The position numbers and the translations under genes are program-made. Of a stretch of 64,000 nucleotides of DNA, positions 4,666-47,391 are shown in pieces. The DNA comes from Amphiscolops sp. MND2022 (Eukaryota): positions 6,882,001-6,946,000 of the forward strand of contig OZ076415.1 of NCBI GenBank assembly GCA_964187785.1, given 5' to 3'. The stretch's first letter is position 1; each line of letters starts with the position of its first letter. Below the pieces are notes generated by a model that saw nothing but the letters and a program-made list of their open reading frames with translations, made no database searches and was not told where the DNA came from.

Positions 4666-4667
4666 TT

Positions 4668-9678: not shown

Positions 9679-9719
9679 CAGTGCCAAAAGTGGGTTAACA
9701 CACTTTTGTGCTATTAAGT

Positions 9720-15558: not shown

Positions 15559-18526
15559 ACTGAATACAGCTGCCCCAACTGTTCGTACAAGTCGAACCGC
15601 CGCACGAATTTTGAGAGGCACCAAAAAACCTGCGGTACAAAGCAGCCGCAAAACAAAGCCTGTCCCCGTTGCAAGAGAGTCTTCGCCACCCTTGTAACGC
15701 TCAAGCGGCACATCAAAAAAGCGAGGTACTGCACGACAGACATACCCCAAAATGAACGAAAGTACAGTAAGTACATCAACTATGTCAACGACTTGCGGCT
15801 CTTTTTGTTCCCCCCACCACATTTTTCATGAAAAAATAGTGAAAAACTTATATCACAAAGACGTGAATACAAACCAGAAAGCCTCAAATTTATATTTATT
15901 TTTAGTGTGACAGTTTAGGATTTAGATACAAATAATTACGAACATAATACAAACATAATACGAACATAAGTATTGTCTGCAAGTTTTATATAATCTGCGT
16001 TCGTTAGTTTACATTTTATTCAGTAAAATTTTATAGGAACTGCCAACCCCAGCAAGAAATATCCTTGCACATCATGTAGTGAGGAATTTGCCCGGAGTGA
16101 CTCCCTGCAGAGACACCTGGAACGATTTCCCCTCCACAAAGAAAGCGACATGGCAATGACGAGCGAGCCTAGTCGACGGGCGTACGAAGGGTCAAGTCTC
16201 TTCGTAAAGTACCTAGAGGACATGCCGCTATCAGAGGAGCCCTGGAACTGCTGCAGGTGGGCAAATCAGCAGGAAGATGAAAACGGCATGGTCCTGAAAG
16301 CACTCTCTCGTGGCCAGCCGATTTTGTGGAAGAACGGGGCTATGCACACGCGAGGTTTGAAGCTCCCAGTTTTGCCCGCTGAGGACTTCGTCCACCAAGT
16401 GGAGTTCTTGCTGCAGCACTTGGCTAATCCTGCAGCGAAGCTTGCTGTAAAGTCATCACGGCTGCCACAAGACCAACAGGTGAACATATCCCGCCATTCT
16501 TTGTATTTTTCGAATTTCACAAACTTCATTCAAGTATAGCGTTTTACCATTAGTGATAAAATTTATTGTATACATTGAATCAAAACATAGTGAGCTTTAG
16601 TATCCACTAAGTCGTCGTTGGCAGTGGATTTCACTGTAAGTTATCTAAACATTGGTAAAGTAATTTCAAAGGATTATGATTGAAATATATTTTTCTGAAC
16701 TTTAGGTCAGGTCTTTAACAGTGAGAGAGTACCTGGATGAGCAGCGAGCGGGGCCCTCAGTAGCACCCACGGGAACATTTCCTGTCAATGTCATTGACAT
16801 TGCACTCGAACGGAATGTATGTTTTTTTATCATATCTTGAAAGGGCTCATATTGGAAAAAATTACTCTTTGAATTTGGTGTCTTTACAGTGCCAAAAGTT
16901 AGTGAAATACATGATGCACCCTTCTATTGTTCAAATTTTTAGCAACTAAATGGATGTTGAAAATGGCGACCACTGTAAGGAGTCTTTGTTCTGAAACCGT
17001 TTGCTGAGGTCTTGTCGTTTTGGTTTAGTTTTTCCAAGTACCGGATTTCGTCAGACACTGTGCGGCCGATCATCTGGCAGATGAGTGTGTGGATGCAGCA
17101 GGGCACTTCACCGAGGCTACATCCAATTATTTGCTGGTCTCAAACGACCAGTGTCTCACGCCGTGGCATGTCGACTTCTCCAGCACGACTGCCTTCTATA
17201 CTGTCGCCCGAGGACAGAAGATCTTCTGGCTGGTGGAGCGACAAGCTCAAATTTGCAGCTCTTTGAGGAGTGGAGCAATATCCCCACAAAAAGGTAAATG
17301 TACTCAGATCATGTACTGAAAACATACTCATCTCAAAGTCATCATTTTGCGAAGAGCACATTATCAATCATGCACATGATTCAAAATCATTGAACCAGTT
17401 GTTTCGTTTATATTTATACTAATTTGTTTTTATTTAGACCAACTTCCTTCGGGAACCTGAAGGCGCTGACAGGTGGGGTCCACAAACTTGTGGTGGAAGC
17501 AGGCGACATCCTCGTTTTGCCTGCACGCTGGCCACATATAGTGGCAACAAAGGGAGACGCCATTGCTTTTGCCTCCAACATCCTCGCTGTCACACATTTC
17601 CCTCTGATTGTGGACAGTCACCTCCACGCCAGTCAGCAGGAAATAGACGACGAAGAGGTTTTTCCCGGAGTTGTTCGTGTGTATGCTGTGCTACAGTTTA
17701 AAATACGACAACTCCAGCGAAAACTCAATTCCCTGAGCGGAACATGGAGCCCCCTCTTCTCCAGCCCACAACTGACTCTTCTGAAAGAGCAGATCAGCAG
17801 TGAGCTCGACGCCATCAAAATGGTAATCAATGTTTGTTAATTATGAATGGTAACTGATAATGTAGAAAAAAGAACTAATCTCTTCCACGGTCTGGGATGT
17901 GAACTACGGATTTTAATGGTTCTCGTTTCGAACTGCCTAACAATGTAAACGTATTTTTTCAAATGTAATTGTAATTTTGCACTTTTCTCATTGAATTCGC
18001 TCTATTTTATCATTGTCAATGGCTTTTGTTACCAGGTGTATCCAGCGTTCAATTTAAAGCAAATGGGATTGAGGGGTCCGGAGAAGCCCTATTGCGACCC
18101 AAAAGGGCCAGTGTACGCCTTCACAGGGACTGTGAAGGAAGTCCGAATTGGGCCTACACACCAGGTTGAAATCCCCGAAATGTCACAGAAGGGAAAGAAA
18201 TATGACCGCAGCATCCTTCAAAAGGAGGAGGACGTCTTCGATATAGGTTAGGAGCTGCAATTGTTGATGTCATAATTTTCGAAATCTTGATATTAAACCT
18301 TACATAGATATTTGACCACTAGTCTATAGGAAAACCTTGAAATTGCATCTGTTGAAAAAAAATCACAAACCCCATCGTTATGATCTGTTTAGACACCCTG
18401 CCGCCTCTCATTGCAAACTGCGACACTTTCAAAGAGTTTTTGAGCAAGAAAATTGCTCTCTACAAGCTGGCTTTTGCAACGAGCCTACATTGCAAAAGAA
18501 GCCTCGAGAAAAATTCACTATGGTGA
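15559..18526 (+). CDS. Multi-exon C2H2 zinc finger + JmjC (KDM2/KDM7-like) + ELM2-like protein; start codon not located
   Basis: GT-AG exons 15559-15766 (2 ZnF), 16037-16479 (ZnF), 16706-~16815 (FPVNVID), ~17039-17293 (TPWHVDFSSTTAFY..RGQKIFWLV), 17438-17822 (LPARWPHIV, third Fe ligand His), 18036-18246 (VRIGPTHQVEIP) and 18393-18526 (IALYKLA). Phases are compatible except across 16815-17039. Two 1-bp deletions at 16750-52 and 17239. Confidence 0.8.
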
Positions 18527-18627
18527 ATAAAGAAGCTGCCTGGAGCAAACTTTTATAGTTCATTATTTTTTTATCAAACTCTTTAGTTTAGAATTGAACA
18601 GAATTTAGTTTAGAATTTACTCCTTTA

Positions 18628-19255
18628 TATTGGTTTGCAAATGTTCGAGCATTTGTTTGTAGAAATCACTTTTAATGGATTGAAATACGTCTGTCGATTC
18701 CGCATATCGCTTTTCGCAGGATGAAGAATTTTTTCTAGAATAATGGAATCCACTGCAATAGAAACTTGAGTCTATTTAGAACTAATAATTTACTGAATGT
18801 ACCCCTTTTGGATTGGTTTGCAAATGCTTAAGAATTTGTTCGTGGAATCCACTGTCAATGTATTGGTATATGTTAGTCAATTCCGCATATCGCTTTTCGC
18901 AGGATGAAGAATACTTTCCAGAATAGTGGAATCCACTGCAATAGAAACTTGAGTCTATTTAGAACTAATAATTCACTGAATGTACCCCTTTTGAATTGGT
19001 TTGCAAATGTTTAAGCATTTGTTTGTGGAATCCACTGTCAATGTATTGGTATATGTTAGTCAATTCCGCATATCGCTTTTCGCAGGATGAAGAACACTTT
19101 CCAGAATAGTGGAATCCACTGCAATATAAACTTGGGTCTATTTAGAACTAGTAATTCACTGATGTACCCCTTTTGTATTGGTTTGCAAATGTTTAAGCAT
19201 TTGTTTGTGGAATCCACTGTCAATGTATTGGTATACGTTAGTCAAATCCACTTAC
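18628..19255 (-). repeat. Inverted copy of the 175-183-bp tandem array (~3.4 copies)
   Basis: gtacccc at 18799, 18982 and 19164; reverse complement of the 12636-13220 units. Confidence 0.9.
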
Positions 19256-19651
19256 TGTTTCTGGCTAGATGCATTTAGGTTTAGTAGAACGTTTGTACCA
19301 TAAATCTGAATGTGCAAAAACCAAAGTAACAAAGCATTATTACGTATCGGGAACAGTTCTGAATAATAATTTGAAATTATCTACTGGGGAGAATTTTTCA
19401 AGAAAGTAGTCGCAAGTGAAAAAAGTTTTTTGACATCATTTATTGTAACAAAGACAAAATTACTGTAACAATCGAATTAAGAAAAAGAACTTTATCAGTG
19501 CAATACCAACAAAAATACCATTCAATTTATTTAGGGTAACAAAACAGACGCATTTTGAAGATGTATTTGCACATTTACTCACGGTGGATACCAAAATTGC
19601 TACCCCTATTGGTCAACAAAGTATTCAATGTGCGCATGTTGAATGTTTTGC

Positions 19652-20902
19652 CTAAAGCGTTGTCGATGGTCTCCATTTTTTGTAGTGGCCTTCAGTTGTA
19701 GTTATGTGGCACCTGAATGAGAACATCATAAAGTCACGATGTTCCGTGAATTTCAAAGTCTTGATCAATGTTGCAGGCTCATCTTCAAGTGTATCTGGAA
19801 TGATGTCCCAGTTCTGGCCCAATATAAAATCTAAGCTGTTGTAGCTTCCCAAGTTTCCCGTTTCAACTTCTATTGAAAATTTCACGTTTTCTCTGCTTGA
19901 GTCCGACTTGAACCCACAGATACGTTTTGTGAGCTCTGTTGCAGGTATCATGTTTGTCACAGTTGATGATTTCTTGAACGACAAGCCAACACATCTCTTA
20001 ATTGCAGAAAAGACTGCAAACGTTCTATCAACATCATTATCAAGAGTGAAAAAATTGATTTCCACGTTTTTTAAATATTCCGAGATCTTTAACGAACAAT
20101 TGTTTACTGGCATCCTAAGTTCGCAGTCTTCGTCGTCCATGGATACCATTATTGCAAAAGGTTTCAACTTCTGTGCACTGTAGTACAAATCCTTCACTTT
20201 GAATTCCATTCCAGACAAAGTAATAATGGATCCTCTTTGACAAATTCCATTGACACATGGTACAAAGCTTAATTTGACATCAACATCGGTTTGCGGTATC
20301 AATGCTGAAAAGTCTATTTCTGGTATTTGTGTTTTAGGTCTTTTCTGTTTTGGTTCCTGCCTCGTCTCTTCAGCTTCCTCGTCGTCTTCTGCTTTCTCAT
20401 CGTGAACATGGGTTTCTTCCACTGAGTTCTTCAAATAGCAATAGGGGATAAATCTAAACATTTCGTCCACCTCCACGACACACTCATGGGTAAATGGGTC
20501 ATTCGTCGAAATAGTTCCCGTTTTGATTTTTCTATGGGAATCAATAAAACAATGCCCCACACACTCACAATCGGGTAGCCAGAATGTCACATGCTCGTTT
20601 TTTTGCAGTCGGTTTGGGTTATACGACAGGGGTTTAGAACGCTTTTTCGACATGACTGGTTGTGAATGTCGTGCTTTTCTAATGTTCCACCTGTTTGGGT
20701 CAGGACGCAATTCTAGGGGAATTTCAATTTTCTGCAGACGATTGTTCCAGTCGATCCATTGGATTTTCAGAGACCAATCACTTATGAACGCTATTATCTT
20801 CGCAGACTCCCAAATATAGGTTTCAGGGTCGAGGATTTGGACAGTTTCATTTATTTTAAAAGTTTGCAGAAGCATTGTAGTGGAGACTAAATTTGACTTC
20901 AA
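19652..20902 (-). CDS. 416-aa intronless protein with N-terminal Tudor/Royal-family-like domain(s)
   Basis: Uninterrupted ORF. INETVQILDPETYIWESAKII..SLKIQWIDW resembles a Tudor/Agenet barrel with aromatic-cage residues; possible second barrel (EHVTFW..KTGTI..CVVEVD). C-terminal half unassigned. Confidence 0.6.
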   Translation of the reverse strand: MKSNLVSTTMLLQTFKINETVQILDPETYIWESAKIIAFISDWSLKIQWIDWNNRLQKIEIPLELRPDPNRWNIRKARHSQPVMSKKRSKPLSYNPNRLQKNEHVTFWLPDCECVGHCFIDSHRKIKTGTISTNDPFTHECVVEVDEMFRFIPYCYLKNSVEETHVHDEKAEDDEEAEETRQEPKQKRPKTQIPEIDFSALIPQTDVDVKLSFVPCVNGICQRGSIITLSGMEFKVKDLYYSAQKLKPFAIMVSMDDEDCELRMPVNNCSLKISEYLKNVEINFFTLDNDVDRTFAVFSAIKRCVGLSFKKSSTVTNMIPATELTKRICGFKSDSSRENVKFSIEVETGNLGSYNSLDFILGQNWDIIPDTLEDEPATLIKTLKFTEHRDFMMFSFRCHITTTEGHYKKWRPSTTL

Positions 20903-21299
20903 CAGAAAGAAACACTTGAGCTTACTCTGTGCATAAACTGTTCAAATTTGTGCAAAGTGATTACCAGGTGTCAACGCATAAACTGCGCGAAAAAGAGGCT
21001 AATTTTACGGTGATGATCCTAAAAGAAGGTGTCATTCCATTTTGAGCGCTCAATAAAAGAAATTATCACTAGCAATTAGTTTTTAAACTCATCTCGTGAG
21101 TGTTAATATCTTTGAATAGGCAATTGAGTCCCGAAAGGACTCAACCACCGTAATAAACCTGATAACACTTACTGGTTGAAATTATTAATTTAGTCACTGT
21201 GAAATGCAATGGGTGAAATCGAGTCTCTGCTAATTATGAAAACGACGATTTATCGAAAAAATTAATTACAAAATTGTCATTTCTTTTTACATCATAATT

Positions 21300-23282
21300 T
21301 TGATTCACTCAGCGAAATCCACCGTCAAGATTTGTACTCCTAGTTTCATGAATACTTCTAGCATGCCTGACAAAATTTCAAATCTCGAATCGACACACTT
21401 GTGTCCATCCCAGACTTTTACACCTGTGCAACAGTCACATCGACGATCTACCGACTGGAATGTGCCGCCAGATTTCCTCAGCAATACATCCATATTTTGT
21501 CCGCCATCTTATTCGCCAATTCCATCGGCCCCCGAGGAGGGTTTCTTCAGTGCAACTAGAATGATGAACTCTGATGGGATCGAGCACTTGATTGAACATA
21601 CGCCCACAGACGCTCTAGAACATTTACTGCAGAATGCTCACAATCTGACTCATATTCCTTTGCCGCCTGAGAACCCACTACAACAGGACCCCCCGTCACA
21701 GAATTCACTGCCTCACCAGAACTTGCCACCCCAGAGCAATGTGCCCGGGACCAATGCGTCACCCCAGCTCAATGAGCCACCCGGGAAGCGTCCATTTGAC
21801 TCCCAGTGCAGTGAGGATAATTTAAGTAACAGCCAATCCAAATGTGCGAAAGTTACTTACTTTGACAACAACATGTACGAAAGAACGTTGGCTAAACATG
21901 TGCAGGCATCGAAAGAAAATGTGGGACTAGTACAAAAAGCTAAGTTGGAACTCTTTCGATGCATAATTACAACCCTGTTCAAGTTTGCGGTACCACCTAT
22001 GCTTGAAAGTTCCATCCGAAATGTCTCGGTACACTCAGTTGTGCAAATCGTGATGGATCACGAAGAAGATTCACTGAGCGACGCTTTCAATCTCTGTGTG
22101 GAACACACAATTGGATCATCGGAACGAACAGTTCACAAAGTATCCGGAAGTCTTGTTGAAGCATTGAAAGTATATTTTACACAAATTCGGCCATTTTTTG
22201 TTACCAATCACGCCAAGTTAGCCATTGTTCGATACGAAAAGGCCGACAAACGTCCAATTAATACAGAGTTATTCTTCGTGAATTCAATTGGTAAAACGGA
22301 CTTCCGCGTTAAATCTGTTGTAGATCTTTTCATTTCAAGCAAAAAAGCAGAAACAAAAGATCAATATACATTGAAAGGTAAAGTCGCGGAACTGATGCCC
22401 CTTTCCAATGACCCATGCTTCAAAATCGCCAAGCTGAAACATGCAGTGAATTTGGTTCTTTCGAATGTTGAAGGTTTCGACAAAGACGTTGTGAGAAACG
22501 CTGTTCGCGGCCGCCAAGACCAGCAAAGGTACACTCGCCAGTCAGCCAGGGCCTTGCTATACTTTGAACACGTTTCTGGGAAAGTTGCTATTAACTGTCT
22601 TGAGTCAAGAGCGGCGGCATTTTTTCAGCGACAAAAGTGGACTTCGCTGAAGGATAAGAACCAGGACGTGAAAAAAGTGACAGCGCAGTTATTGATTCTC
22701 TCTAACAACCAGTCAATTAGAAAATCTTCGCAGGTACCTGAGAACAGTGGAATTCGGTATGCTGGACTTGCTCATAATTTGCCATATGAAGAACAAATTT
22801 TGCTGTCGCAACGATGTGAGACGCAGCTGTGGCCTGGAATCTGCTTAGCCAAAATGTCAAAATTTGGGAGATGTGTGATTGCTACACAGAAATTTTCAAA
22901 AGACGACATTTTGATGGATTATCATGGCGAGGTGTCTTTGAACATGTCATTGAGCCAAGTCCTCGAGAAAGAAGGCGTGGAGCAAGAGTTCGTTCTGGAG
23001 GTTAAAAGTGGCGCCTCTAGAAGAATCATTGATGCCTCCAAAGAGATTTGCCCCCTTCACCCAAATATTCGCTGCCCTGGACGTCTTGCCAACCACTCGC
23101 AGTTGAAATCAAACGGCGCCAACATGAAGCCCACAGTGATCGAATTGTTTCAAAATGGCAAAAAGATTGTAGTGTTCCGAGCTACACGTGATATTCTACC
23201 ATTTGAGCAGCTCCGTTTTGATTACAATGACCCCATTGCCAATCAACTTTTCCAGGAAGATTCTCAACCAATTTTTGACTGA
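21300..23282 (+). CDS. 660-aa intronless protein: P/S/Q-rich N-terminus, degenerate tyrosine-recombinase-like domain, C-terminal PR-Set7/KMT5A-like SET domain
   Basis: SET: FGRCVIATQKFSKDDILMDYHG..IIDAS..GRLANHS..FRATRDILPFEQLRFDY. Middle region follows the YR motif order (LKVYFTQIRP, LFFVNSIGK, KLKHAV, QQRY) without the catalytic R/K/H residues. Confidence 0.8.
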   Translation: MIHSAKSTVKICTPSFMNTSSMPDKISNLESTHLCPSQTFTPVQQSHRRSTDWNVPPDFLSNTSIFCPPSYSPIPSAPEEGFFSATRMMNSDGIEHLIEHTPTDALEHLLQNAHNLTHIPLPPENPLQQDPPSQNSLPHQNLPPQSNVPGTNASPQLNEPPGKRPFDSQCSEDNLSNSQSKCAKVTYFDNNMYERTLAKHVQASKENVGLVQKAKLELFRCIITTLFKFAVPPMLESSIRNVSVHSVVQIVMDHEEDSLSDAFNLCVEHTIGSSERTVHKVSGSLVEALKVYFTQIRPFFVTNHAKLAIVRYEKADKRPINTELFFVNSIGKTDFRVKSVVDLFISSKKAETKDQYTLKGKVAELMPLSNDPCFKIAKLKHAVNLVLSNVEGFDKDVVRNAVRGRQDQQRYTRQSARALLYFEHVSGKVAINCLESRAAAFFQRQKWTSLKDKNQDVKKVTAQLLILSNNQSIRKSSQVPENSGIRYAGLAHNLPYEEQILLSQRCETQLWPGICLAKMSKFGRCVIATQKFSKDDILMDYHGEVSLNMSLSQVLEKEGVEQEFVLEVKSGASRRIIDASKEICPLHPNIRCPGRLANHSQLKSNGANMKPTVIELFQNGKKIVVFRATRDILPFEQLRFDYNDPIANQLFQEDSQPIFD

Positions 23283-23785
23283 TGGAATCGTCAGAAAACT
23301 CCGTTTACGAAACACTTTTTGTTGTTGTGTATTCAATTTTTCACTACTTTCGTTTTAATTTCACTTGTAATTAAACACTGATTGCTACAAGTACAAATGT
23401 TCGTTTTTCGTAATATCGAAACAAAACACCGTAAATAACGTCTTTCCCTTGCAACGTCTTCTTCACTCGAATTTAGATTTCCATTCATCATTCGACTTGT
23501 AATTCAATTTGAAATTTTGGTATCCGCCTTGAGGTATTTGAAAAATGGAAACTAGTTGTACCTAAAATACACTAAAATACACGAAAGAGCTGTGTGTGAA
23601 CTTTGATGTAGAATTGATAAGGTCTCCGTTGCAGTCAGCAGTATGCTTGAAGTGAGTTTTCCGGAACCAAATTTTGGTATCCACCATGAGGTAAATGAAA
23701 AATGAAAGCTAGTTATTTCTAAAGGTATGTGTGTATAACTAGGTAACTAGCAGGAACTGGGTGTGAAATTTTGATGCCCACTATG

Positions 23786-24520
23786 ATTCAGTGAAATAAT
23801 TCAGTGAAATAATTCAGTGAAATAATTCAGTGAAATAATTCAGTGAAATAATTCAATGAATTCCACCAAAACAATTGAAATAACTCAGTGAATTCAGGTA
23901 TTGAAAAAATTAGGTGAAATAATTAGGTGAAATAATTCAGTGAAATAATTCAGTGAAATAATTCAGTGAAATAATTCAGTGAATTCTACCAAAACATTTG
24001 AAATAACTCAGTGAATTCAGGTATTGAAAAAATTAGGTGAAATAATTAGGTGCAATAATTCAGTGAAATAATTCAGTGAAATAATTCAGTGAAAAAATTC
24101 AGTGAATTCTACCAAAACATTTGGAATAACTCAGTGAATTCAGGTATTGAAAAAATTAGGTGAAATATTTAGGTGAAATAATTCAGTGAAATAATTCAGT
24201 GAAATAATTCAGTGAAATAATTCAGTGAATTCTACCAAAACATTTGAAATAACTCAGTGAATTCAGGTATTGAAATAAAAAACTGAAATAATTAGGTGAA
24301 ATTATTCAGTGAAATAATTCAGTGAAATAATTCAGTGAAATAATTCAGTGAATTCTACCAAAACACTGCATTGGAAATAATTTTGTGAAATAATTCAGTG
24401 AATTCAGGTATTCAAATAATTCAGTGAAATAATTCAATGAAATAATTCAGTGAAATAATTCAGTGAATTCCACTAAAACACTGCAGTGGAAATAATTAGG
24501 TGAAATAATTCAGTGAATTC
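23786..24520 (+). repeat. 13-bp minisatellite (TTCAGTGAAATAA)n with higher-order ~115-bp blocks, E1 right subterminal region
   Basis: Dozens of direct copies, periodically interrupted by ttctaccaaaacatttgaaataactcagtgaattcaggtattg. Confidence 0.95.
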
Positions 24521-24830
24521 CACTAAAACACTGCAGTGGAGTCCACTGCAGCTGATAGTGGATTCCACAGCGGCTATCGGTGGAGTCCACTGCGGCCATC
24601 GGTGGAGTCCACTGCAGCGTTCAGTGGAATCCACAGCAGTGTTTTGTGGAATCCACTGCAAGATCCGAATGTTTAAGGTATTTGATAGTGGAATCCAATG
24701 CTTTGCAGCGAAATTCGCTGCAGAAAAATCGCCAAAAGAGTGGAATCGACTGCAACGTAATAGCATTTGTTAGTGGATTACGCTGCACGCTTTCCAAAAC
24801 TGCCGTCCAGCGAAATCCACTGCAAAAATT
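24521..24830. repeat. E1 right subterminal CAGTGGA(A/G)TCCACTG palindromes
   Basis: Repeated cagtggagtccactg / gtggaatccac motifs mirroring the left subterminal region. Confidence 0.8.
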
Positions 24831-24853
24831 CAAAATACCCACTTTTGGCACTG

Positions 24854-25176
24854 TAATGACACTGGAGGCCATGATCGGACAGGAAGTAGAGCGGATACGG
24901 TCGCAAACGCCGATGCTGACCTCTTCAATCGGCTGCAGCACTGAAATACCACAGGCCGCCGACGCGACACAACCGGACGCACTCGAAACGCCGATCCGCA
25001 GCCAAAGCACTTCAAACACTGAGGCAATAGACCATGACCACGCAGGTAAAGCACGGTTAAAACAAACCTTTAGCGATGAAAGTAGCTCACTAGATTTAAA
25101 TCAGGAGCCACGTAGATCCGAAAGGATAAGATCTGCAAAAAGAGTAGTTAAATTAGGCGGTGTCGAATACTTCTAA
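24854..25176 (+). pseudogene. C-terminal tail of Gypsy A pol, resuming after E1
   Basis: MTLEAMIGQEVERIR...EPRRSERIRSAKRVVKLGGVEYF*, in frame with the sequence before 9677; PPT AGAGGAGGGAA at 25294-25304. Confidence 0.85.
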
Positions 25177-25304
25177 CCATTGTCTATTTAGGAAATACTT
25201 TTACCTTCACTATTCCGAAGAAATACCCCATGACCCCTTTTCCTCGGATCAAGAACTATGAACCATCGCAGATCTGGTTCCCTTGAACGCCGCAGAGGAG
25301 GGAA

Positions 25305-25529
25305 TGTGACTCTGGTAACGACATGTGTCAATCCAACAGATGCCAACGATCAAACCTAATCAACTAAATGGCATAAAACTACCAGTCAATGGCCTTATGT
25401 TGAAGTCATGTAACCACTATACATATTTAACTTGTCTAGATATACTACAGTCGTGTTGATCCAAGCTAACTTACAATTGAGCTACTTTATTTTAATTCAT
25501 TCTTAGAGCACCTTCCTCAGTCTACTTTA
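25305..25529 (+). repeat. 3' LTR of Gypsy A
   Basis: Preceded by the PPT and followed by TSD GATGC. Confidence 0.95.
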
Positions 25530-33369: not shown

Positions 33370-36300
33370 TATATATTATCTACTCTTTTTAGCAATCAGG
33401 AAAACCCAAACAATCCCAGGTCTGATAGGAATGACAGCACTGTGTCCTCCCAAAATGAAAGTAGATTTTTCCGTGTTGGGAAACAATGGGAGGAAAAAGA
33501 CTGAACGGGTAATGCTGGTCCCCGTGTCCGCTATCAACCATGCATGCCAACCAAATGCCGAATTTATAAATCATGGCGAATTGTCAACAACCGCCTTGGA
33601 AGTTAAGACAACTCGACCCCTCAAAAAGGGGGAAGAAATAACGTTGTCCTATGGCGAAGACTTTTTCGGTGCTGGCAACAAGGATTGTGGTTGCAATGAT
33701 TGCAAGGAAGAACAACTCGAATCAGAACCTACCATACAGATTCGAGAGCCAGAGAACGAACTACCAACCTCGGAAATTCAAGAGACACAGAAGGAACCAG
33801 CAACCTCGGAAATTCAAGAGACACAGAAGGAACCAGCAACCTCGCCAATTCAAGAGACATAGATCGAACCAGCAACCTCGCAACTTCAAGAGCCAGAGAA
33901 CGAAGCAGCAACCTTGCAAACTCAAGAGCCAGAGAACGAAGCAGCAAGTTTGCAAAGTCAAGAGACAGAGAACGAAGCAGCAACCTTGCAAACTGAAGAG
34001 CCAGAGAACGATGCAGCAACCTTGCAAAGTCAAGAGCCAGAGAACGAAGCAGCAACCTTGCAAACTCAAGAGCCAGAGAAAGAATCGAATGTTGAGCTAG
34101 AAGAGCCAGTTTATACGAAGGTGCTACCAGTGAACCGTGATTTAATGGATTTTCTGGATTCACAGGACCTCGCTGATTTTTCGGACGTTAATTTCGCGGA
34201 AATGTCAGCGATTGCTTACTACACCCCAATGCAACCTTTTCAGTTTCAGCAACTCCCTTATATGCATCTTTGCCCCTCTTACATGGAAAACATGAATTAC
34301 ACGCCACAATATCCACAACATATCACTTACATGCCACCGTTTCATCCCCCGATGCCACCTCAACCATTAATACAACAACATCCTCAACCCACCAATTCAA
34401 CTCCGCGTTCTGCTCCGAAAATGCTGGAAGATCCTAATCCTGGCCAAAAGTCTACCAATTGCAGAGTATTCATTGATCAAACTAGATGAGCATATAGAAT
34501 GCCTAATTTGCCATAAAGTTGTCAAACGAATGGACAAGCACCTCGAAAGTCATTACCTAGAGAAAAGAAAATTAAGTATAACATGGATTTGTTTCGGACG
34601 AAAGAATCTGGCAGAAAAACAGTATGGAACTGTGAAGTATGCTCCGAAGATTCGCAAGTAAAAAACCTCATAGAACAACATGTATTGCTACATTACAAGA
34701 AATTGAAAATCCCTCCAGTAGAAAATCTCTCCCCCAGAGCATCCGCGACAAATGCAAAACGAAAATTCTCGCTCGGGAAGAGGACGTTCAAGTGGTGGAA
34801 CGACTCATGAAGCAGCAACAGGTTCTGGCGGATATGTCAGAAAAAGGGCCCCGAACAGTCAGTTGCTGCCAAAATTCAAATTTGCACTCTGTTATTCAAC
34901 GAAACAAAGAAACTGACAGATGCCAAAGCCCTTGTGGAGTCAGCCCGCAGAATTCAGATGAGAAAGTCATTGAAGCCCCAATCCATGCTGATTTATCTAG
35001 CAACATTCAGACATTTCGTGGAATATTGCTTCATGTATGAGGATGGAGTGTGCTCCCAAAACAATAACCACCACATGATGATGAATGCTGCAATGCGGCA
35101 GGTACATTTTCTTGAAATTTCAAAAGTTCAGCTCTATACAATCCATACTCATTAGAAAAAAAATAAATTATAGAAATCTTTTAGTGAGAAGGTCAGGCGA
35201 TGAAAGAATTGAACCAACTATTTTTTGATGTTTGTCAGGCATAGGAGTAATGTTGTCGAATGAAGGAATTGAATCAACTAATTTTTGAAGTTTGACACGC
35301 AAAATAGAACCGATTTTGAAAGATTTTTTGATCCAACGCGCAAGAGATGTTATCGAGCGTTGTAAAAACACTAACTAATAACTGACGTTCGTCCCGGTGA
35401 AGAGATGTTCTTGAATGATGAAAATAAAAATCTAGGAAAAAAACAAGTTGGGCAGAAAAATGTTTTGTTTCTGACTAAGAAAGCATTCAGAAGCGCTGCT
35501 GCTCGGGACTACAAGAAAGTAGTAAAACAGCTGAGAGCTTTGGTCCCTAGCACGGAATTGATCAGCGAAAGGATGCGAGGGACACTTGAAATCCTGAATA
35601 AATCTTGAAAGAAAACAGTCTATCGTACAAAATACAACAGGCCCTGAACTTCTTCCTCTTACAAGGCAGACTCAGACTCAACGTAAGAGCCGGACCAATC
35701 CTCACCCTAACTTGAGAGGATTTCAAATGGATTTAGGAAAACGGTGCCCCCTTTACAAACCGATAAACATAAGACAGGGTCGTACTATACAGTATACATT
35801 CAAATTGAAAAGGACCAGCGGGAGTTCCTGAAACGCCAGGAAGAAGCTTTTGTGCGGGAGGTGGGAGATCAACCTAACTTCATCTTGGCCTCGCAAAATA
35901 ATAAAGAAGAGAGGTCCATTTGCCGGCATTTGCGCGAGGTTATTTTTCGACTTGTTTTTATCTACACAAAAGAAAAATATCATTACTGCTGAGTCTTGAA
36001 TTTCAATCCATTTTTCCAGGTCTTCTTCACTCTGTTCATGACGATCCCAGTGCTGTGCGATTCAATGCAAACTCTATCAGAAAATATTGGGAACGTCGTT
36101 GGAAAGTTATTGGAAAGGACTCTGGGGACGGCGTAATGAAAGCACATTATGCCCAAACTGCGCATTCGGCAAAAACAGATCTTTACATTGGATGAGAAGG
36201 CACAGAGTCGGAACGTGCATGCCTTCTTTCAATGTACGCAAACGGTTTGGCCTTGAGACCAGGATGCCAGGAAGAACCTGCAATGGAAGAGCCTGAAGAG

Positions 36301-36600
36301 GCATCTGACTCAGGTAATTTTCATGTTTTTTTCCTTTTGCGTGTTTCTAAAATTACAGAAATTATTCAAAAAATGCCCCTTTTCAGAAAGAATTTTTACA
36401 AAACGTCCCAAAATCAACGTCTCAAATGATTTTTTTCTCTAGATTCATCAGATTCTGATATCAGTGAGCCGGATGATCAACCGCCGCTGAAACGCCCCTG
36501 CTTGACTGCCCCGCCCCTAAGCCTAAGCCCAGAGTTAACAACCCGCGGGACTCCATAAATTCAACACTACATTCAGATCCCCGATGTGACGCATTCATGA
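33370..36600 (+). pseudogene. Suv4-20(KMT5B/C)-like SET + 12-aa acidic repeats + zinc finger + tyrosine recombinase, multi-exon, decayed
   Basis: DFSVLG..VMLVPVSAINHACQPNAEF..GEEITLSYGEDFFG..CGCNDC; CLICHKVVKRMDKHL; ALNFFLLQ..RLNVRAGP; HKTGSYY; NANSIRKYW; AHSAKT. Premature stop at 33860 and several frameshifts. Confidence 0.85.
33740..34085 (+). repeat. 36-bp coding tandem repeat (EPENEAATLQTQ-like)
   Basis: About 9 copies of caagagccagagaacgaagcagcaaccttgcaaact variants. Confidence 0.9.
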
Positions 36601-38147
36601 AGTCCCTAAAGTGCTTCCGCAGCACCAGTGGCAAAAACGTATGGACAGAGCGGGAAAAAGGTGCAGTTGCCCTTTTTTTCCAAGTGAAGCTGAACCCCGC
36701 TTATGGGGATATTTAAGCCCGCTGCGAAGAAGTCGGATATATTTTTGCCGAAGACGTCTACATTAGAATATACAACAAAGTGAAAGCAGCCACTTTCCTT
36801 CATTTGAGATAGACTTTTGAGATTCCTAAACTCGGAGATAATCTGCAAAATTTGCATTGTTGACATTAGTTTCAATAAATCTAATGTTTCAATATCAATT
36901 ATTCTTCAATATGATGCTTTTCTTTATAGCTAACAGAACAGAAGCAAAAAACAGTAAGTTTTGAGCCCACTCAAATCCCTAGAGTTACAAATAGAATTAG
37001 TGTATGTAAATCAAGTACACTGAACAAATAAGTAGGAAACACTGAAATTTGATTGGCTGTTATCATTGGTATGTGATCATTAAGTTGCCGCTTTTTTCTC
37101 ACTTTATTTGAATTGTCAACATCTTGCAAAAGTTCGGTCAGTTTGATGAATTATAATTGTCACTAGTTGAACGTCACTAAAATTGAATGGACATTGCATC
37201 GGTGTTATTGAAGGTTAGTGTATATTCAATACTTTCGTACAGAACGCTTGAACAACATCTTCAGAGTTGTTAGATGATACGTACAAAAATATATTATACT
37301 GAATCTGAGAACTCTCGAGAAGGAAGTTCCGATTGTTAACTGGTAGCTGAAGAATGTTTTGTAAATAGTTGTAGATATTACGGTGAATTCCCAAATAAAA
37401 TAGAGCAAACATTAATACTAAGATAGTTTCAGATAGAATAAAAGAAAATGTGTTTGATTTATTGGTTAATTCCAACCACCGATTTAATTCCCCGGCGATT
37501 TAAATCCCCCAGTTTTCACATTCACAATTCACAATTCAAAATATTCACTGAAAACAGTATAATATTAACAGAAACTATTTTCATTTTTATGTTAAATAGG
37601 AATAATTTCGTTTTTATGTTAGTTGCTCTTATGTTATTTAATACGTAATCAAATTTACGATCTTGTTTCATTGTTAACTTCAGTGGAAAGTTGCTCAAAT
37701 TAGGCTGAATGAATTCATAATGAAATATCACTTTGACTGGAAATTTAGATAGGAAATACATATAAACAAACTTGTGACCTCGGTGTCCTGGCAAAGGGTG
37801 TTCCGAATTTGAACTTCCGAATAATTCGTCGTAAAATGAGTCGAACCAAATGAAACAATAATGGATCTTTTCCGTTAATTCCCCCAACAAACCATCACAA
37901 ACCTTTTATTCTTTGAAATATTGGTAACAGACTATCAATTTTTGGTGAATTGAAAATTCTAACTGCAATTCAAAACGATCGCTTGAAATGTTTACTTTGT
38001 GGGAATTCACAGAAAGCTGTTCTTTCATTTGCAAACCAGTGTAAAAAAAACGAAGTAATGGAGTATACTAGTTACACATTTGAAGCAACTGCACAAAAAT
38101 TTAAAATCAGTGCACGCAGATTGAAAGATGTGTCAAACAAGTGTTAA

Positions 38148-39664: not shown

Positions 39665-42600
39665 TCAGCAGTTTTTCAGAAGAGACCATGCAGTCTTAAT
39701 CTTTTGGTAGATTTTCTTGACAGCCTCTTGATTGAAGTTGAACTCCATCTGAATCAACATTTCCCGCACTTCCGTCATTTGTACTGATGATGTGACAGTC
39801 TCAGCGAGTAGGCTTCATGCTCGTTTCTCCTCCTCTGTCCACCCAGTTTTCGTTTTTCTGAAAACAGACATGCTTTTGATGAAGCGCATTCGGGTTGGAC
39901 TTCGTTGTCTTGGTTTGGGCGTTGGTTTGTTCCTCGTGGTTCCACGTGAACTTGGCCCAGGCGTGTAGGGTGGCTGATGGTTGTCTTCGTCATCAGCGTC
40001 GTCACCACAGGCTGGCTCTCTTCTCGTACGCTTTCGAACGGAGTGTTCTGGCGAAGGCAGGTTGTTGGCTTCGTCATTATCATCGTCATCGGAGGTCGAC
40101 TCTCTTCTTCTTCGCTTTCGACCAGAGTGCAGATCCATCGTCGAATTCAGCGACGCTCTGTATGGTGCTCGCGGTTGAGGCTCCTCCTCTTCTGATACTG
40201 TATCAGAGTCAGAATCAGGGCAATGGTCGGCAGGCAATGGTTCAATTCCTGATTCATTGCCATCATCATCTTCATGAATTGTGTTAAGTTCTTTGCGGTA
40301 CACATCAAGCACTTTATTTCTGTCAGCCTCTGTAACTCCTGAAACCACATTGTGAATAAATAAGTGATTGTAACAAAATTACAATCTGATATAAACATCA
40401 ATGGAAAAATTTGCATAAAAGATTTCAAATGTATCGGTAGTTTGGTATAAAATTATTTGCAAAGTTTGCTTACTTATGTAGTGTTTTTTCGCCGTTGATC
40501 TCGAGTGACCTGTCTGGGAGAAATGAGCTTCTTCATCGTTGTCCTGCAGGTTCATCTTGTCAATATGCTCATCCCAGAACTTTCGAATTGACGTGGCATT
40601 GTACCTTGTCACTGTGGGATCGTCCCCAAACAACTCTGTGAAGCACTGGTTAATGTACCAGGCGATCTTCGTTTCCTGCCCATTTTGACTATTGGAGAAG
40701 ACGTAGTCCGGAACGGTGCCATACTCATCAAGCATCCGTTCCCGCATCTCTTGCACGAATTTGACTTGGTCCCCATCCATTTTCACGGCCACTGTGTAGT
40801 ATTTTCCTGCAAACAATATATTGTATTAAGTTAGAATAAAAACTTTTGTTGAACACTTTTTTATAGAAAAACCTTTATAATTTCTATAGAATAATACAAT
40901 GTAGCGTTTTTTATAGTATTCACTCTTTAAATTCTATAAAAAGTTACCTGTTTTGTGCTCGTTGGTTTCAATTGAGAATCCATGCCTCAAATGAGAATCA
41001 AATTGATCCCATTTTATGTTCAACAGTGGCCCGGGCCTCACATTGAGTCGAACTTGGAGCAGGAAAAAGTTGAGGGCCTTCAAGAAGTTTAGGCTCAACT
41101 TTTTGTCGTCGAGGTCGTTCGTCAGAGCTTCTATCACCTGCCGTTGTCGTTTGGTCACCTGTTGTTTTGTAGGCACTTGCGCGAACCTTTCTTTAGCTCC
41201 CTCGCGTTTTGACTTTGACACATCCACGCTGATTTTTCGTTTCACATCCCTGCAGGCCTTCTTCATAACTTCGATTTTGAAATCTTTCCTCACATTCGGT
41301 CTTTCGTAGCAGTTGCAATACTCACAGAAGTTCTTGAAGTGAGTGAGGTAAATGTCAGTTGTTGTTGGCAGCCATCCCTTCCGCCGTTCTAAGTTTTCAA
41401 TTGCTGGAGCCAGCGCTTTGGGCTGCGTTAGACCCAATGTTTGTCCATACAACAACGCAAGAACGTTCTTCAAGCCATCTTTCCCCTTCACTTCCTCATT
41501 TTCATCTGTATTTTTGCCTCTTTTGCGGAATTCCATGTTGACAAAGCTGGTGACAATGTCCAAGTGCTCCTCACGGGGAATACATCCATTCCTTAGTTTA
41601 CATCTCAGTTCTACTGGCAATGATCTAAACAGAAAAAGAACAAATTGTAGATTTTGCTTCCATTTTTCAATACCATAATTTAGGAAACACTACTTTATTC
41701 TTTGAGAGGTGATTTTTACTATAACAAGTACTACAAATGTTTCAGTTCTAGTACTAATACTTTGCTTAAAGTAGTAACTTACGTTCTACTCTGATGATTA
41801 GCAACAACAGATATGTTGGAGTCATTGCACTTCATGCTCCTTTTGTGACTGGCCCTGTCTATGAATCTTCTGTTATGCTCAGAACAGAAGAACACTTTGG
41901 TGTTCGCATGAAGATGCTGAGTCCTGAAGAAGTCTTTCAGCATCACGATGTCAGATCTCGTCAGCTCTGGATGTTGTTGAGAGAGGTGCTTGTCGATCCG
42001 CTTCGAAGTCTTCTCGCAGATAGGGCATTGGGTCACGTCGTCGTATTTGGTCTTCTTGGAGTACGATTTAGCTTTGCGCTGTTCAGTGCTATTGGAATCA
42101 TCGGAACTATTACCCTTGCAAACTTGGCACAAACATTGAACGTTATTCTGGCCAAAATAATTTCCCCCATAACTGACGAAAATTTCCTCATTCTCAGCAA
42201 TCCCCCGAGTTGTTTCCACTCTCAACACAGTTTGATTTTTTGTTGGCCCTCCATAGACAAACACTGCATTGGGTTCACAGCTGTGGTTAATGAAGCTTGC
42301 TGGTCCTAGCATTATCCTCTCCTTTGAGTTGTTGTCTGTCGCCCCGAAGACAGAGAACTAAGGAGCGTTTTGTACTGCATCTGCGAAGTAGCCGTCGACA
42401 CCACGAATTTTCAGTCCTTTCGGGAGCGCCTTGCGAGCTCTGACAGAAAACTCGATCCCGCCTTGGTATCCGGGAATGTCGACATACTTGACACTTTCGA
42501 ATGATGAAGAATAGGATTCCATCATCTGACTGAAAAGCTTCTGGTGCTGGGGATTGTTGCTGATGATCGCAAAAATATTTGTTGGTGGCTCAACGTACTT

Positions 42601-43635
42601 GTGGGAAGTACGTACGTCGGTATCGATGAAGCTTTTTGTGCAGTATGCGTCAATAGCACCAAGTACCAAGTCTGGACGCATCTCGTCTTCCGTTTCAGGC
42701 AGTCTCAATAGTTGCGGCGATACAGTTTCTGGGAGAGCCTCGTCAGTGGATGTTGCAGTTTTTCTGTCAGAAGTTGACTCAGCTTTTTGCGGTGAATAGT
42801 CAGTTTGTGCTGGGGGTGAATCGTCAGTGATGGCCAAAGTTCCAACATCAGGTGCTGACGCAGTTTGTGGAATTGGGTCGTCAGACGATTCTGGGGGTGA
42901 ATCGTCAGTGAGGGCAAGAATTTCAGCATCAGGTGAAACGGCCCTGGGTGCTGAAGTTTCACCATCAGGAGCTGACCTAGCTACTGGGGAGGAACCGTTA
43001 CTTAGCGCTGAAGTTTGATCATCAAGAGTTGACACAGCTTCTGATGGTAAATCGTTACTAGGTGCCGACGTTTCAGCATCAGGTGCTGACGCCGTTTGTG
43101 GAATTGGGTCGTCACACGATTCTGGGGGTGAATCGTCAGTGAGGGCAAAAATTTCAGCATCAGGTGAAACGGACCTGGGTGCTGAAGTTTCACCATCAGG
43201 AGCTGACATAGCTACTGGGGAGGCACCGTTAGTTAGCGCTGAAGTTTCATCATCAGGAGTTGACACGGCTTCTGGGGGTGAATCGTTAGTAGGTGCCAAA
43301 GTTTTAGCATCAGGAGCTGACACAGATTCTAGGGGTGACCCGCCAGTGGGTGACGAAGTCTCAGCATCGTGGGTGGGTTCAGAAATTTCAACGTGAGAAG
43401 CTGACGCAGGTTTTGTAAGTGGCTCTTCAGTGGGTACTGCAGTTTCATTGTTTATGGTGTTAAGTATAGGGGCATTAACCATGCTTGTTCCGTTTTCAAT
43501 GTCACAGTTCGTCTTCTTTCCTCTCGTTTTCGGTTTTGGTTTCCCCTCGTATCCCTTCGGTTTTGCTGCAGGTGCAGTCTTGACTTGCTGCCGGGTGGCG
43601 CGGGTTAGAAGAGCTTGTGATCGAAGGCTTGGCAT
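39665..43635 (-). pseudogene. Suv4-20-like SET + zinc finger + tyrosine recombinase + acidic linker + Myb/SANT-like domain; 4 coding exons, two in-frame stops, no frameshifts
   Basis: Exons 43635-41783, 41624-40948, 40806-40474 and 40338-39665 with compatible phases. SET: FSVFG..IMLGPASFINHSCEPNA..EEIFVSYGGNYFGQNNVQCLCQVC. YR: RLNVRPGP, HKTG|K, TSIRKFW, GHSRSTAKKHY. C-terminal WTEEEK. Stops at 42358-60 (TAG) and 39815-17 (TGA). Confidence 0.88.
42780..43400 (-). repeat. Coding acidic repeats (~19-20-aa subunits, ~80-aa higher-order duplication)
   Basis: APDGETSAPR.VSPDAEI.ALTDDSPPES.DDPIPQTASAPD occurs twice. Confidence 0.85.
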
Positions 43636-44078: not shown

Positions 44079-47000
44079 TCAGTTTTTCAACAGCTTTCTT
44101 CTGGCAGTCAATATTTTTCTATTGAGGGTTTGCCAGCTGGGCAGAGTCACATTGTTTGACATCATTTGTTGCTAAACACAAAAAAACTCTTATTAGTGTG
44201 TTTTTATAGTATACTGTATTGATATATGGGGATAATAAGTTTTTAGAATACATATTTAAAGAAGAAAATTAATGTATGATATATGAAACTTTTTAATAGA
44301 CATAACTTCATAACATTTAAACAATAATACATTGTAGAATCTATGGGATTAACTCTATAATTTCTATAACAAAAGGTGCTTTGGAGAATATCTTATGGAA
44401 TTCAAGATATAATTTCTATAGAAAAGTATTGTTGGGAATATCCTATGGAATTCGTCCTAGAACTTCTATAGAATAGTACTTTGGGAGATACTTTGGAAAA
44501 GTAATGTGATGTTAATAAGAAATAAAACTGAGTATACCAGGTAAATTTGAGTTTCGTCTTGAGCATCTTTGTTCAGCAGGACATCTGCAACTCGAAGCAT
44601 CTCGTTCGAAGGGTTTGAGTCGAGTTGATCAATTAGCCACAACAAGAGAATCGCCGGGAGAGAAGGATAGTAGGAGTTAAATGACAACCCCTGTTGCTTC
44701 TCTTTGTTGAATGTTTCCACAATTTGAGCTAAACATTTCAGAAATCACATCTTTTGTCAACGTTGGTTTCATGGAAGAACAATTACTTCATTTCAAGATA
44801 CAATCCTATAGCTATATGTTGTGGTAACATTAGATGACTTACGCATTTGAACATCCCAAAGGAAGTTTGAACCACGCGCGATTGAACCCTTCGTAGTCCG
44901 AACCATATGAGGCACTCCTCCGGGGATGATCATACCCTCGTCCTCCTTTAGCACTACTTTCCTCACGGCCAACCTTGGGTCTGTCCCAAATATCTCAGTC
45001 CTGTAAAAATAGAACGTGAAGTTATATTAATTATTCAAAGTAATTGAATAAGTCTATAAGAGAAGTATATATGTATGAGTGCTTAGACTGCTGAGAACAT
45101 CTTACAGAAATTATGACAACTATATTATGTCGGAGAACTCTCGATAGAAATTTTAGTCTCTTACTGATTTCCGGCGAGGTAGTCCTCGAAAAGCTCCTTG
45201 TTAAATAGAGTTGGCTCGACTACCAAGAATTCCTTCTCGCCCTTCAACAAAATGTAGAAGACACTGGTCCCCGAGAAGTCGACATGCCAAGGTGTTATGG
45301 CTCCTCCCTCTGTCATCAGCATGTACTTGCTGACGTCCGAGCTCTTCAACACTGGTGGCAAAACTTTTTCATAGCGGTGTCCTAGTGACACTTTTTTCAC
45401 TACATCAGGCGGCTGGAAGTGGCAAAGCTCTGCGTTATCTGAAAAACACGGCTACAAGGTACTCAAAGCGCGAGACACTGAGAATGTAGGGTAAACAGTG
45501 TTTTTACGTATGAGCTTATAAATTCGATATATTCTATGTATCAAGTTCTACAAAAAATAGGTTCAACCAACCCGGTGGAAAAAAATCAATGACGTTCATC
45601 GGGAATTTGGATTCCCCAATGACTTTGATGAACTGATCCAGAGTCATCTTGTTCAACTCTTCCTCACCGGACTCATTGTAATGCCGGACCAAGACATCTT
45701 GTTGAGCCATGCAGTTTTCGGTGGCTATCTGCCGAACACAGTCCTTGAAGTTGAGGCTCAGAGTCTTTTTCGGAATGGTAGAGGTCAATCCTTTGAATTT
45801 GAAAGCATCCTTGATGTGATACACCTTCAAATTCTCCCTCATTCCAGATAAGTCCCTCTCAACATCGTCAGCAGATATGACCGTGACAAACGCAGTATTC
45901 TCTGTGAAAACGTTGTCGAAGAACCGATTCAATTCTTCAGTGTTCCTCATAATATCCATCAGAGCTTGAGGAATCTCTGAATCGGTGTCATCATATTGTT
46001 GTTGCGAAAAGTCATCTTGTTCTCGAGTGGTGCCTTCTTCTTGCGGTTGTGAATTGGATGACGAGGCTTGTTGCTGTGAATTTGTGGACGAGGCTTGAGG
46101 AATGCGTTGAGCTGGAAGCTTATCAAGAGTGGGCATTTTGTTGTCTCTCAACGTAGCATTAATAGCGGCTAACGACGGCATGTAGTTGAAGGAAGACTTC
46201 CTCTGCAGTACTGTCTTCATCGATGGCAGGTTCCTGGCTTTCATAAGTGACAGCACATTCTCCTCAGTTGGCAGGAAAAGCTTGTACCTGACCTTTTGGG
46301 TGAAAGGCTCCTTGGATTCCCACTGTGCCTTCATAATCCTTCTGCAAAGGTCACCAAGGCAATGGTCCCCCAAGCGCCAGATGTCTTCAAAGGGGAATCC
46401 AGCGGGGCCATAGCCGCAGAAGAAGCATGGCAATCGTGTCTTTCCCTGACACGTCCCTTTCTTGAGAGCTTGGTGCTTCCTCAGTGTGGTTCGTGTCTTG
46501 AACCTCTCTTTACAAACTGAAAGAATTGACGATTAAACTACAACAAAAAAGATACGAAATGTGTCTAAGTAACTCCTATATCTACGTCTATTACCTCAGG
46601 CATTTTTTTGGAAAAGTACCATGGACAATATTTTATTGAAATAAGTCAATACCTTCTATAGAATTGTATCCTGGGAATATCTTATAGAAATCACTAGATG
46701 ATTTCTATAGAATAGTGTCATGGGGATTATCCTATAGATTTTAATCAGTAATTTCTATAGAATGGTATCACGGGATTCTTTTATAGAGTTTTTTTCATAA
46801 TTTCTATAGAATAGTGTCATGGGGATTATCCTATAGATTTCATTCAGTAATTTCTATAGAATGGTATCACGGGATTCTTTTATAGAGTGTTTTTCATAAT
46901 TTCTATAGAATAGTACTATTCTATAGAAATTATGAAAAAAACTCTATAAAAGAATCCCGTGATCTCAAAAGATAGTTTTCAGAGTATTGTTCAAAATAAA

Positions 47001-47391
47001 TCAAACTGAAAAGATATTCTTCATGCTACTAATCTATAGAAAATATGGAGCAAATTCTATAAAAGTGGAATCAATAAGATAATCTGCATACTACGTAGTA
47101 TGCAGATTATCTTATTGATTCCCCTTTTATAGAATTTGCTCCATATTTTCTATAGATTAGTAGCATGAAGAATATCTTTTCAATTTGATTTATTTTGAAC
47201 AATACTCTGAAAACTATCTTTTGAAAATCACTTCATAATTTCTTCAGAATACTTAACTTCAGAATACTTCAGAATGTTTTAAATAATTTTATAAATTTCC
47301 CTAGTTAGTGACGTTAGTAGTTAGTTAGTTAAGTACTCTACTCACCGTTGCACTGTGGTCTGGCATCTTGATAGGGGGGTTTGCTAGCCAT
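44079..47391 (-). CDS. Multi-exon C2H2 zinc finger + JmjC (KDM2/KDM7-like) protein, apparently intact
   Basis: Exon 47391-47346 spliced to 46516 rebuilds CN|VCKERFKTRTTLRKH. FPMNVID; KYMLMTEGGAITPWHVDFSGTSVFYILLKGEKEFLVVEPT (His 45284, Asp 45278); IPGGVPHMV..GSNF (His 44907); YYPSLPAILLLW; last exon stop at 44079. GT-AG phases are compatible. Confidence 0.85.
46650..46865. repeat. TTCTATAGAA-rich tandem repeats (~100-bp unit), intron 1 of the JmjC gene
   Basis: atttctatagaatagtgtcatggggattatcctatagatt repeated; related motifs at 40860-40920 and 44330-44480. Confidence 0.8.
46866..46963. repeat. 98-bp loopless palindrome (1 mismatch)
   Basis: atcacgggattc...tagt|acta...gaatcccgtgat, centre 46914/46915. 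Confidence 0.95.
46965..47224. repeat. 260-bp loopless palindrome (2 mismatches)
   Basis: tcaaaagatagttttc...tactac|gtagta...gaaaactatcttttga, centre 47094/47095. Confidence 0.95.

Follow-up and report, generated by a model that had tools for sequence, protein, structure and literature searches.

Cargo-bearing transposons are known, and among them the fungal KDZ-type transposons carry chromatin-modifying domains. Fish genomes hold many recombinase-linked KMT5A-like genes, and SETMAR (Metnase) is said to be a domesticated primate host gene joining an H3K36 SET domain to a mariner transposase. In Arabidopsis, VANDAL transposons encode accessory VANC proteins, whose targets are short motifs specific to each family and arranged in tandem arrays (PMC5735166), and Cryptons have an intron-bearing recombinase gene, lack a reverse transcriptase and in some cases carry a C48 peptidase (PMC3212892). 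Here, we analyze 64,000 nucleotides from Amphiscolops sp. MND2022 (contig OZ076415.1, positions 6,882,001 to 6,946,000; this whole stretch is referred to as the window). Three DNA transposon copies in it, which we call A, B and C, hold the genes that an initial annotation had read as converging on methylation of histone H4 lysine 20 (H4K20). Element A is a terminal inverted repeat (TIR) element that moved as a single 15-kb unit, and the family of B and C encodes a SET-zinc finger-putative recombinase protein. Enzymes of histone methylation are cargo common to these unrelated element types and, judged from sequence, have kept their catalytic residues across a diverged family. On balance, we favor the view that cargo-bearing animal DNA transposons carry such enzymes to control their own chromatin. 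The SET/JmjC cargo of A, B and C appears to be new. A literature search, with most subscription journals and Repbase Reports outside its scope, gave no prior description of transposon-borne Suv4-20, PR-Set7 or KDM2/7 genes, and none is described in the available portions of PMC9406493, PMC3212892, PMC3627910, PMC6431247, PMC8869645, PMC13465315, PMC4157794 and PMC13269885.

Element A is bounded by perfect 21-bp TIRs and has an identical dinucleotide on both flanks, whose comparison favors a target duplication of probably 2 bp; A therefore has the TIRs and target duplication of a DDE transposon. It sits in the tail of a Gypsy-type long terminal repeat (LTR) retroelement; a pair of Gypsy LTRs with 96% identity (4427-4651 and 25305-25529) encloses it, so it arrived as one 15-kb unit. 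Its genes are a DDE transposase, a zinc-finger JmjC gene, a 407-aa open reading frame (ORF) and a SET8-like ORF. In clusters of predicted ORFs and fragments formed at 90% identity, which may pool assemblies, the transposase has 77 members, JmjC exon 2 has 27, the 407-aa ORF 76 and the SET8-like ORF 92; element proteins as a whole belong to clusters with 8 to 92 members. An origin of the cargo as host genes is ruled out by the TIRs, the insertion in a retroelement and the copy number, and we agree with the initial annotation that these genes are transposon cargo. Among the members listed, no more than 15 for each cluster, and with the window's own contig excluded, the genes of A occur on common contigs, matched by length, 1-5 times per pair and those of C 6-11 times; genes of A and C share none in 12 pairs.

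The transposase of A is 5'-truncated in the window and frameshifted near 10475-10493 when compared with an 834-aa sibling (P0219). A motif reading and the similarity to RAG1 families in the Atlas (score 0.76) offer a lead, and only a lead, toward a RAG1/Transib-like identity, for which Pfam and PDB searches gave no support. The target duplication of Transib is 5 bp, and the flanks of A have only 2 bp in common. A resembles RAG1/Transib-like and CACTA-type DDE transposons in its TIRs, subterminal repeats, three acidic motifs and weak Atlas lead, but differs from them in the probable 2-bp duplication, a TIR that starts with CATT, a C-terminal BRCT domain and three cargo genes. The palindromic motif GTGGAWTCCAC has 28 of its 29 matches in the window inside A (0.78 expected), and two inverted 175/183-bp tandem arrays (12623-13216 and 18629-19271) bracket the JmjC gene. 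At the right end of A, a nested 13-bp/123-bp subterminal array occupies 23786-24517. A partial copy of the terminal repeat lies in a JmjC intron (16885-16902), and a sibling ORF, P0266, continues from JmjC exon 2 to the right end of A, which suggests that there are internally deleted copies of the element. Rfam and tRNA (ARAGORN) scans gave zero matches, including at 15230-15300 (minus strand), inside A, where a tRNA-like sequence with apparent A and B boxes lies.

The PR-Set7/KMT5A-like SET of the initial annotation is present at the end of the SET8-like ORF (22866-23228; Pfam SET, E 4.7e-9). Its 16 PDB matches at E<=1 include 15 SET chains, all of them SET8-type; the best is 4ldg (E 1.9e-8), followed by KMT5A (E 2.3e-5), and the matches are modest throughout (E 1.9e-8 to 3.9e-4). 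SET8 is thus its nearest solved family and the only SET family matched in the PDB, and, as in PR-Set7/SET8/KMT5A, post-SET cysteines are absent and the Tyr245 position is retained. At the Tyr334 switch, by contrast, there is a Phe (numbered through 3F9W, in which this residue is Y334F), so the Tyr245-Tyr334 pair of the monomethylation switch is incomplete, and relatives have Phe or Trp at the equivalent position. The KMT5A structures 3F9W-3F9Y, with dimethyl-lysine, carry the same Y334F change (PMC3529403). With Phe at this site, strict H4K20 monomethylation cannot be transferred to the A enzyme. It also departs from PR-Set7/SET8/KMT5A in a divergent SET-I strand, in a best match, 4ldg, that is not animal KMT5A, and in a 500-aa N-terminal part. 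A homolog search gave relatives at 75% and 31% identity and no named KMT5A protein. The enzyme is probably active. By eye, a stretch of the N-terminal part (21888-22790) could be read as a dead tyrosine recombinase; this reading remains a guess, as hhalign, a recombinase profile and an 11-sequence model (predicted local distance difference test, pLDDT, 43.5) gave it no support.

For B and C, the two Suv4-20-like SET domains with post-SET CxCxxC reported initially hold in identity, but not in completeness. The B gene has many stops and frameshifts, and its SET covers only profile positions 99-211 of 215, with no N-half anywhere in the window; B may have lost its 5' half because it starts directly after the second Gypsy element (28669-32100). 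The C SET (42100-42699) contains an in-frame stop at 42358-42360, and a second stop (39815-39817) falls in the tail. While neither window copy has an uninterrupted complete SET, 13 of 14 C siblings read through the SET-internal position, and in P0027, a 1115-aa relative, the SET-zinc finger-recombinase order of C is intact in one ORF. The clusters of the C gene have 15, 8 and 14 members. Its recombinase and Myb-like tail are labeled by eye: the putative recombinase, which has no profile match, shows, of the R-H-R-Y tetrad (plus K and H/W) of Crypton-type tyrosine recombinases, R, K, R, a His at the H/W position and Y, with Thr at the first His. This family shares with SETMAR/Metnase, as the latter is reported, a SET fused to a transposition enzyme, but the fusions here are multi-copy and mobile. 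The intron-bearing recombinase gene and the lack of a reverse transcriptase are Crypton-like, in contrast to the SET/JmjC cargo, which the available part of PMC3212892 does not describe for Cryptons, and to the lack of a recombinase profile match in B and C. We looked for the ends of B and C in the window, which for a Crypton would be short direct repeats and not TIRs, and did not find them. A 49/50-bp repeat array and a perfect 130-bp hairpin (46965-47224), upstream of the C JmjC gene (46654-47224 in all), make up the probable end region of C. The hairpin is one of two that adjoin at 46767-47224, both perfect, with arms of 49 bp and 130 bp and zero spacer. All 10 matches of the palindromic motif TTCTATAGAA lie inside C (0.09 expected).

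Searched against the PDB, the B and C SETs each have SUV420H1/H2 as their top 10 matches (E 2.5e-13 for B and 5.5e-12 for C), and E-values for the next family are worse by 7 to 8 orders of magnitude. Of 154 SET rows (150 homologs, two siblings and the two window copies), 24 short ones were removed; the resulting trees comprise Suv4-20/Set9 rows only and have long branches, and their named references are Anisakis and Trichogramma, the remaining labels being our own reading. A quick tree of 130 rows places the B and C SETs in one 33-row clade (Shimodaira-Hasegawa-like approximate likelihood ratio test, SH-aLRT, 100). In a careful tree of 40 self-chosen rows the clade has support of 100/97 and falls on the non-fungal side of Suv4-20/Set9. 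Forcing the B or C group among ordinary animal Suv4-20 rows is rejected by the approximately unbiased (AU) test (p-AU 7e-12 and 9e-48). The phylogeny thus keeps the window SETs with Suv4-20, as annotated, and, since they form one clade, they represent one capture.

Within the 33-row clade, Ser161 and Asn182 are each kept in 32 rows, His183 in 31, and Tyr217 and Cys185 in all 33, and the four zinc cysteines are kept in 33, 31, 30 and 25; both window SETs have Ser161, Phe191 and Tyr217. Glu314 was dropped as a test residue, being present in no more than 17 of 83 ordinary rows. Like Suv4-20/KMT5B-C (fungal Set9), clade members preserve the N-terminal helical region, Phe160-Ser161, Asn-His-x-Cys, Tyr217 and the CxCxxC zinc site. 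Unlike Suv4-20, they are multi-copy and carry, in the same protein, a zinc finger and a putative recombinase or transposase, and they have neither the full SET-I helix nor Trp174. This methyl-pocket position is Met in 33/33 rows, though it is variable family-wide (just 5 of the 97 other rows have Trp), and the SET-I segment has a median of 15 residues rather than 20 (12-13 in the window copies), leaving the helix 4-8 residues shorter. A relay in which the A enzyme makes H4K20me1 for the Suv4-20-like enzymes to extend to me2/3 is thus unsupported at both steps, given the Phe at Tyr334 in the first and the replaced Trp174 and shortened SET-I helix in the second.

Drift in the parts that contact the substrate, with cores kept, is what would be expected if the enzymes had left histones to act on the elements' own transposase or recombinase or on host defense proteins: the SET-I strand of the SET8-like enzyme is unlike that of KMT5A, the SET-I helix of the clade is short, and Ser255 is kept in only 7 of its 33 rows. 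We consider such a shift unlikely, as the clade retains the N-terminal helical region and the zinc site that are specific to Suv4-20, and a putative acidic-patch leader speaks against it. This leader, an N-terminal M-x-[LT]R[SNAG] pattern that was picked post hoc, occurs in 7 of 9 long-leader clade members (the window at 43558-43635, minus strand, P0033, P0034, P0036, P0042, P0049 and P0052) against 1 of 51 others, and we take it to resemble viral nucleosome acidic-patch anchors. SUV420H1 itself engages the acidic patch, and it frees the DNA ends from the nucleosome (10.1101/2023.03.17.533220). In addition, most H4 contacts of Suv4-20 are made through the main chain (PMC3874154, also the source for the active-site residue roles), and the substrate could therefore stay the same despite drift of side chains.

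The clade reaches beyond recombinase elements. In P0096 and P0119, the SET continues into a CACTA/EnSpm-type transposase (DUF1258, E 1.6e-4 and 6.4e-4, below the cut-off). A second divergent Suv4-20-like group (P0065, P0087, P0122 and relatives, including a Trichogramma kaykai protein) joins the clade at 96/91, and its Cys/His tails presumably resemble those that precede recombinase domains. This group may belong to the same mobile lineage by common origin, in which case the lineage would be old and widespread, or its position may reflect long-branch attraction. We hold as a tentative, rather doubtful extension that at least three unrelated kinds of element (tyrosine-recombinase, CACTA-type and RAG1-like DDE) swap active, selected histone-methylation enzymes, and that the two H4K20 families each supplied a writer because transposition is directly helped by H4K20 methylation or by nucleosome opening of the Suv4-20 type.

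The JmjC genes of A and C are, as annotated, members of the KDM2/KDM7 group. Their spliced frames are open through the domain, H-x-D...H and the 2-oxoglutarate Thr, Tyr and Lys are present, and only the KDM2/KDM7 group is matched in the PDB; relatives of the C gene form clusters of 20 and 11, and no named KDM2/7 protein came up in the homolog search. Apart from being transposon-borne, both differ from KDM2/KDM7 proteins (JHDM1, PHF8, PHF2) in having C2H2 fingers in place of PHD/CXXC, and in sharing WHVDFS where solved proteins read FH(I/V)DFGG, a variant found in each of the 20 stored relatives, out of 27 examined, whose sequence extends over this site. Pfam matched no PHD finger in either gene, the first exon of each not being located. 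The A exon scores 43.8 bits against that of C and 29.2 against the best solved KDM2/7 protein; being nearer to each other than to solved proteins, the two very probably share one origin, in a single capture that later became common to TIR and recombinase elements. The initial reading of a PHF8-type eraser is not supported, as neither gene can be assigned to PHF8 as against KDM2 or KDM7A: the A exon leans to KDM2A (29 against 24 bits) and the C exon to PHF8 (46 against 43). A contiguous relative, P0180, gives 64, 59 and 57 bits with the KDM7 group and 49 with KDM2A, so that in this one relative the subfamily seems to lean toward KDM7. The usual substrates of the group lie on histone H3, with KDM7 enzymes acting on H3K9me1/2 and H3K27me2, and KDM2 on H3K36me1/2 (PMC6130214).

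The initial annotation had proposed that, by independent captures, these elements assembled a kit of H4K20 methylation writers, erasers and readers tied to heterochromatin and break repair. Both SET types do come from H4K20 methyltransferase families, and some Tudor-like barrels read H4K20me. PHF8 and PHF2 are also listed as H4K20 demethylases (PMC6130214), and PHF8 tops the C exon by 3 bits. Nevertheless, the proposal is highly improbable, beginning with independence: with one origin for the two Suv4-20-like SETs, and very probably for the two JmjC genes, the seven items come down to about three captures. The Phe at the SET8 switch and the lack of a PHD match also count against it, and the readers fare no better. 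The 407-aa ORF called Tudor-like is indeed a multi-copy gene, and by eye we take its N-terminus to resemble a Tudor-like barrel, but no Tudor domain was found in it by Pfam (whole sequence and three sub-pieces) or by PDB sequence and profile searches. Its best Atlas match (0.77) is to unrelated nematode clusters, and a single-sequence model (pLDDT 53.6), too poor to exclude such a domain, had no Foldseek or VIA match at E<=0.001 (best Z 4.3). The BRCT domain survives as one weak repeat (best Pfam E 1.8e-4, 22.2 bits against a cut-off of 27.3; zero PDB matches at E<=10), at about 11897-12091. It thus lies outside the interval 15559-47391 in which it had been placed, in the tail of the transposase ORF, 8 kb from the 407-aa ORF and on the opposite strand, unlike the tandem BRCT with Tudor of a 53BP1-like reader.

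What is left of the H4K20 theme is two separately captured SET types, both of H4K20 families, with conserved cores and in multi-copy transposons. There are roughly a dozen animal SET families, and under that assumption two SET captures from H4K20 families are about a 1-in-100 draw, which is suggestive but, as two captures, a small sample. The SETs of both families are among the most compact, each working as a single chain, and a bias of capture toward compact domains may explain the theme. It is a further step to hold that compact, self-contained domains were acquired by chance and amplified with the elements as mere passengers, a view with which the broken state of most window copies would agree. 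We think this very unlikely, as catalytic residues are nearly invariant across relatives about 45-60% identical, and 9 of 15 listed members of the SET8-like cluster carry all three tested SET motifs, as compared to 4 of 15 listed transposase members that keep all three acidic motifs in one ORF.

From the anatomy and conservation of the cargo, we infer a function in which the elements act on their own chromatin. The zinc-finger JmjC proteins would bind the element-specific repeat motifs and, like KDM7 enzymes, remove H3K9me2 and H3K27me2 silencing marks, so that the family stays expressed, as with VANC proteins in plants. Through its link to the recombinase, the Suv4-20-type SET would dock on nucleosomes where elements end or insert and would probably still methylate H4K20, loosening or marking the DNA for recombination and repair. 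Most window copies are non-autonomous or dead, and siblings would supply the functions in trans. It is the C2H2 fingers in place of a PHD, together with arrays of element-specific motifs, that recall the VANC proteins, likewise transposon-encoded accessory proteins; VANC, however, acts on DNA methylation and has no known enzyme activity, whereas the proteins here are histone-modifying enzymes of an animal and their binding is predicted.

Several points weigh against the proposal of self-directed chromatin control. The motif arrays could equally be binding sites of the transposase or recombinase. The identities of these two enzymes come from motif reading, and Pfam, PHROGs, NCBIfam and PDB searches named neither. 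As best matches, the window JmjC exons are split between KDM2A and PHF8. The SET-I segment with the H4-contacting glutamate (Glu239) is shortened, and 19 of 33 clade rows have Tyr in place of Phe191 (12 have Phe), a change that cut the activity of mouse Suv4-20h1 (PMC3874154). Finally, H4K20 enzymes usually silence repeats, a poor fit to anti-silencing. A rival reading is self-restraint, in which H4K20 writers silence the elements or their rivals to limit harm and the JmjC lifts the mark in the germ line: H4K20me3 marks repeats, loss of SUV420H2 derepresses them (PMC9406493), and C carries writer and eraser together. Yet the host should already supply the H4K20 mark, and fusion of the SET to a recombinase suggests action during transposition, so we give self-restraint little credence. 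Under the favored reading, counter-silencing by transposons, documented mainly in plants through the non-enzymatic VANC, would have an animal, enzymatic version. A recombinase fused to a nucleosome-binding SET also makes it testable how transposition handles chromatin, and expansions annotated as 'KMT5A-like', 'KMT5B-like' or 'KDM7-like' in invertebrates may be transposon cargo.

Table 1. Features of the window, in window coordinates.
Feature	Positions	Strand	Basis or remark
Bel/Pao element	1-3081		
Gypsy element, host of A	4427-9673 + 24859-25529		Frameshifted
Element A, 15,185-bp DNA transposon	9674-24858		TIRs and flanks
A, DDE transposase gene	10246-12502	+	tblastn of 834-aa sibling P0219; one weak BRCT at end
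A, 175/183-bp tandem array	12623-13216		Inverted relative to array at 18629-19271
A, C2H2 fingers and KDM2/7-group JmjC	15559-17822	+	Five GT-AG exons
A, probable further exon	18036-18246	+	Weak ELM2-like start (E 0.004, below cut-off)
A, 183-bp tandem array	18629-19271		Inverted partner of 12623-13216
A, 407-aa ORF ('Tudor-like')	19652-20875	-	Intronless; N-terminal part predicted beta-rich
A, 644-aa ORF with C-terminal SET8/PR-Set7-like SET	21348-23282	+	Intronless
Second Gypsy element	28669-32100		Frameshifted
B remnant: Suv4-20-like SET C-half, repeat linker, zinc finger, putative tyrosine recombinase	33392-36791	+	
C gene: SET, zinc finger, putative tyrosine recombinase, Myb-like tail	39665-43635	-	Four GT-AG exons
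C, zinc-finger and KDM2/7-group JmjC	44529-46514	-	Four exons modeled
C, 49/50-bp repeat array and 130-bp perfect hairpin	46654-47224		Upstream of C JmjC gene

The window as a whole has a G+C content of 38%, introns with GT-AG boundaries, and both Bel/Pao and Gypsy retroelements. Beyond C, at 49701-64000, a unit of about 7.7 kb is duplicated in tandem, with copies that are >99% identical. A 37-bp array in this duplication extends into an ORF with a weak RING finger (54705-55076 and 62445-62816).

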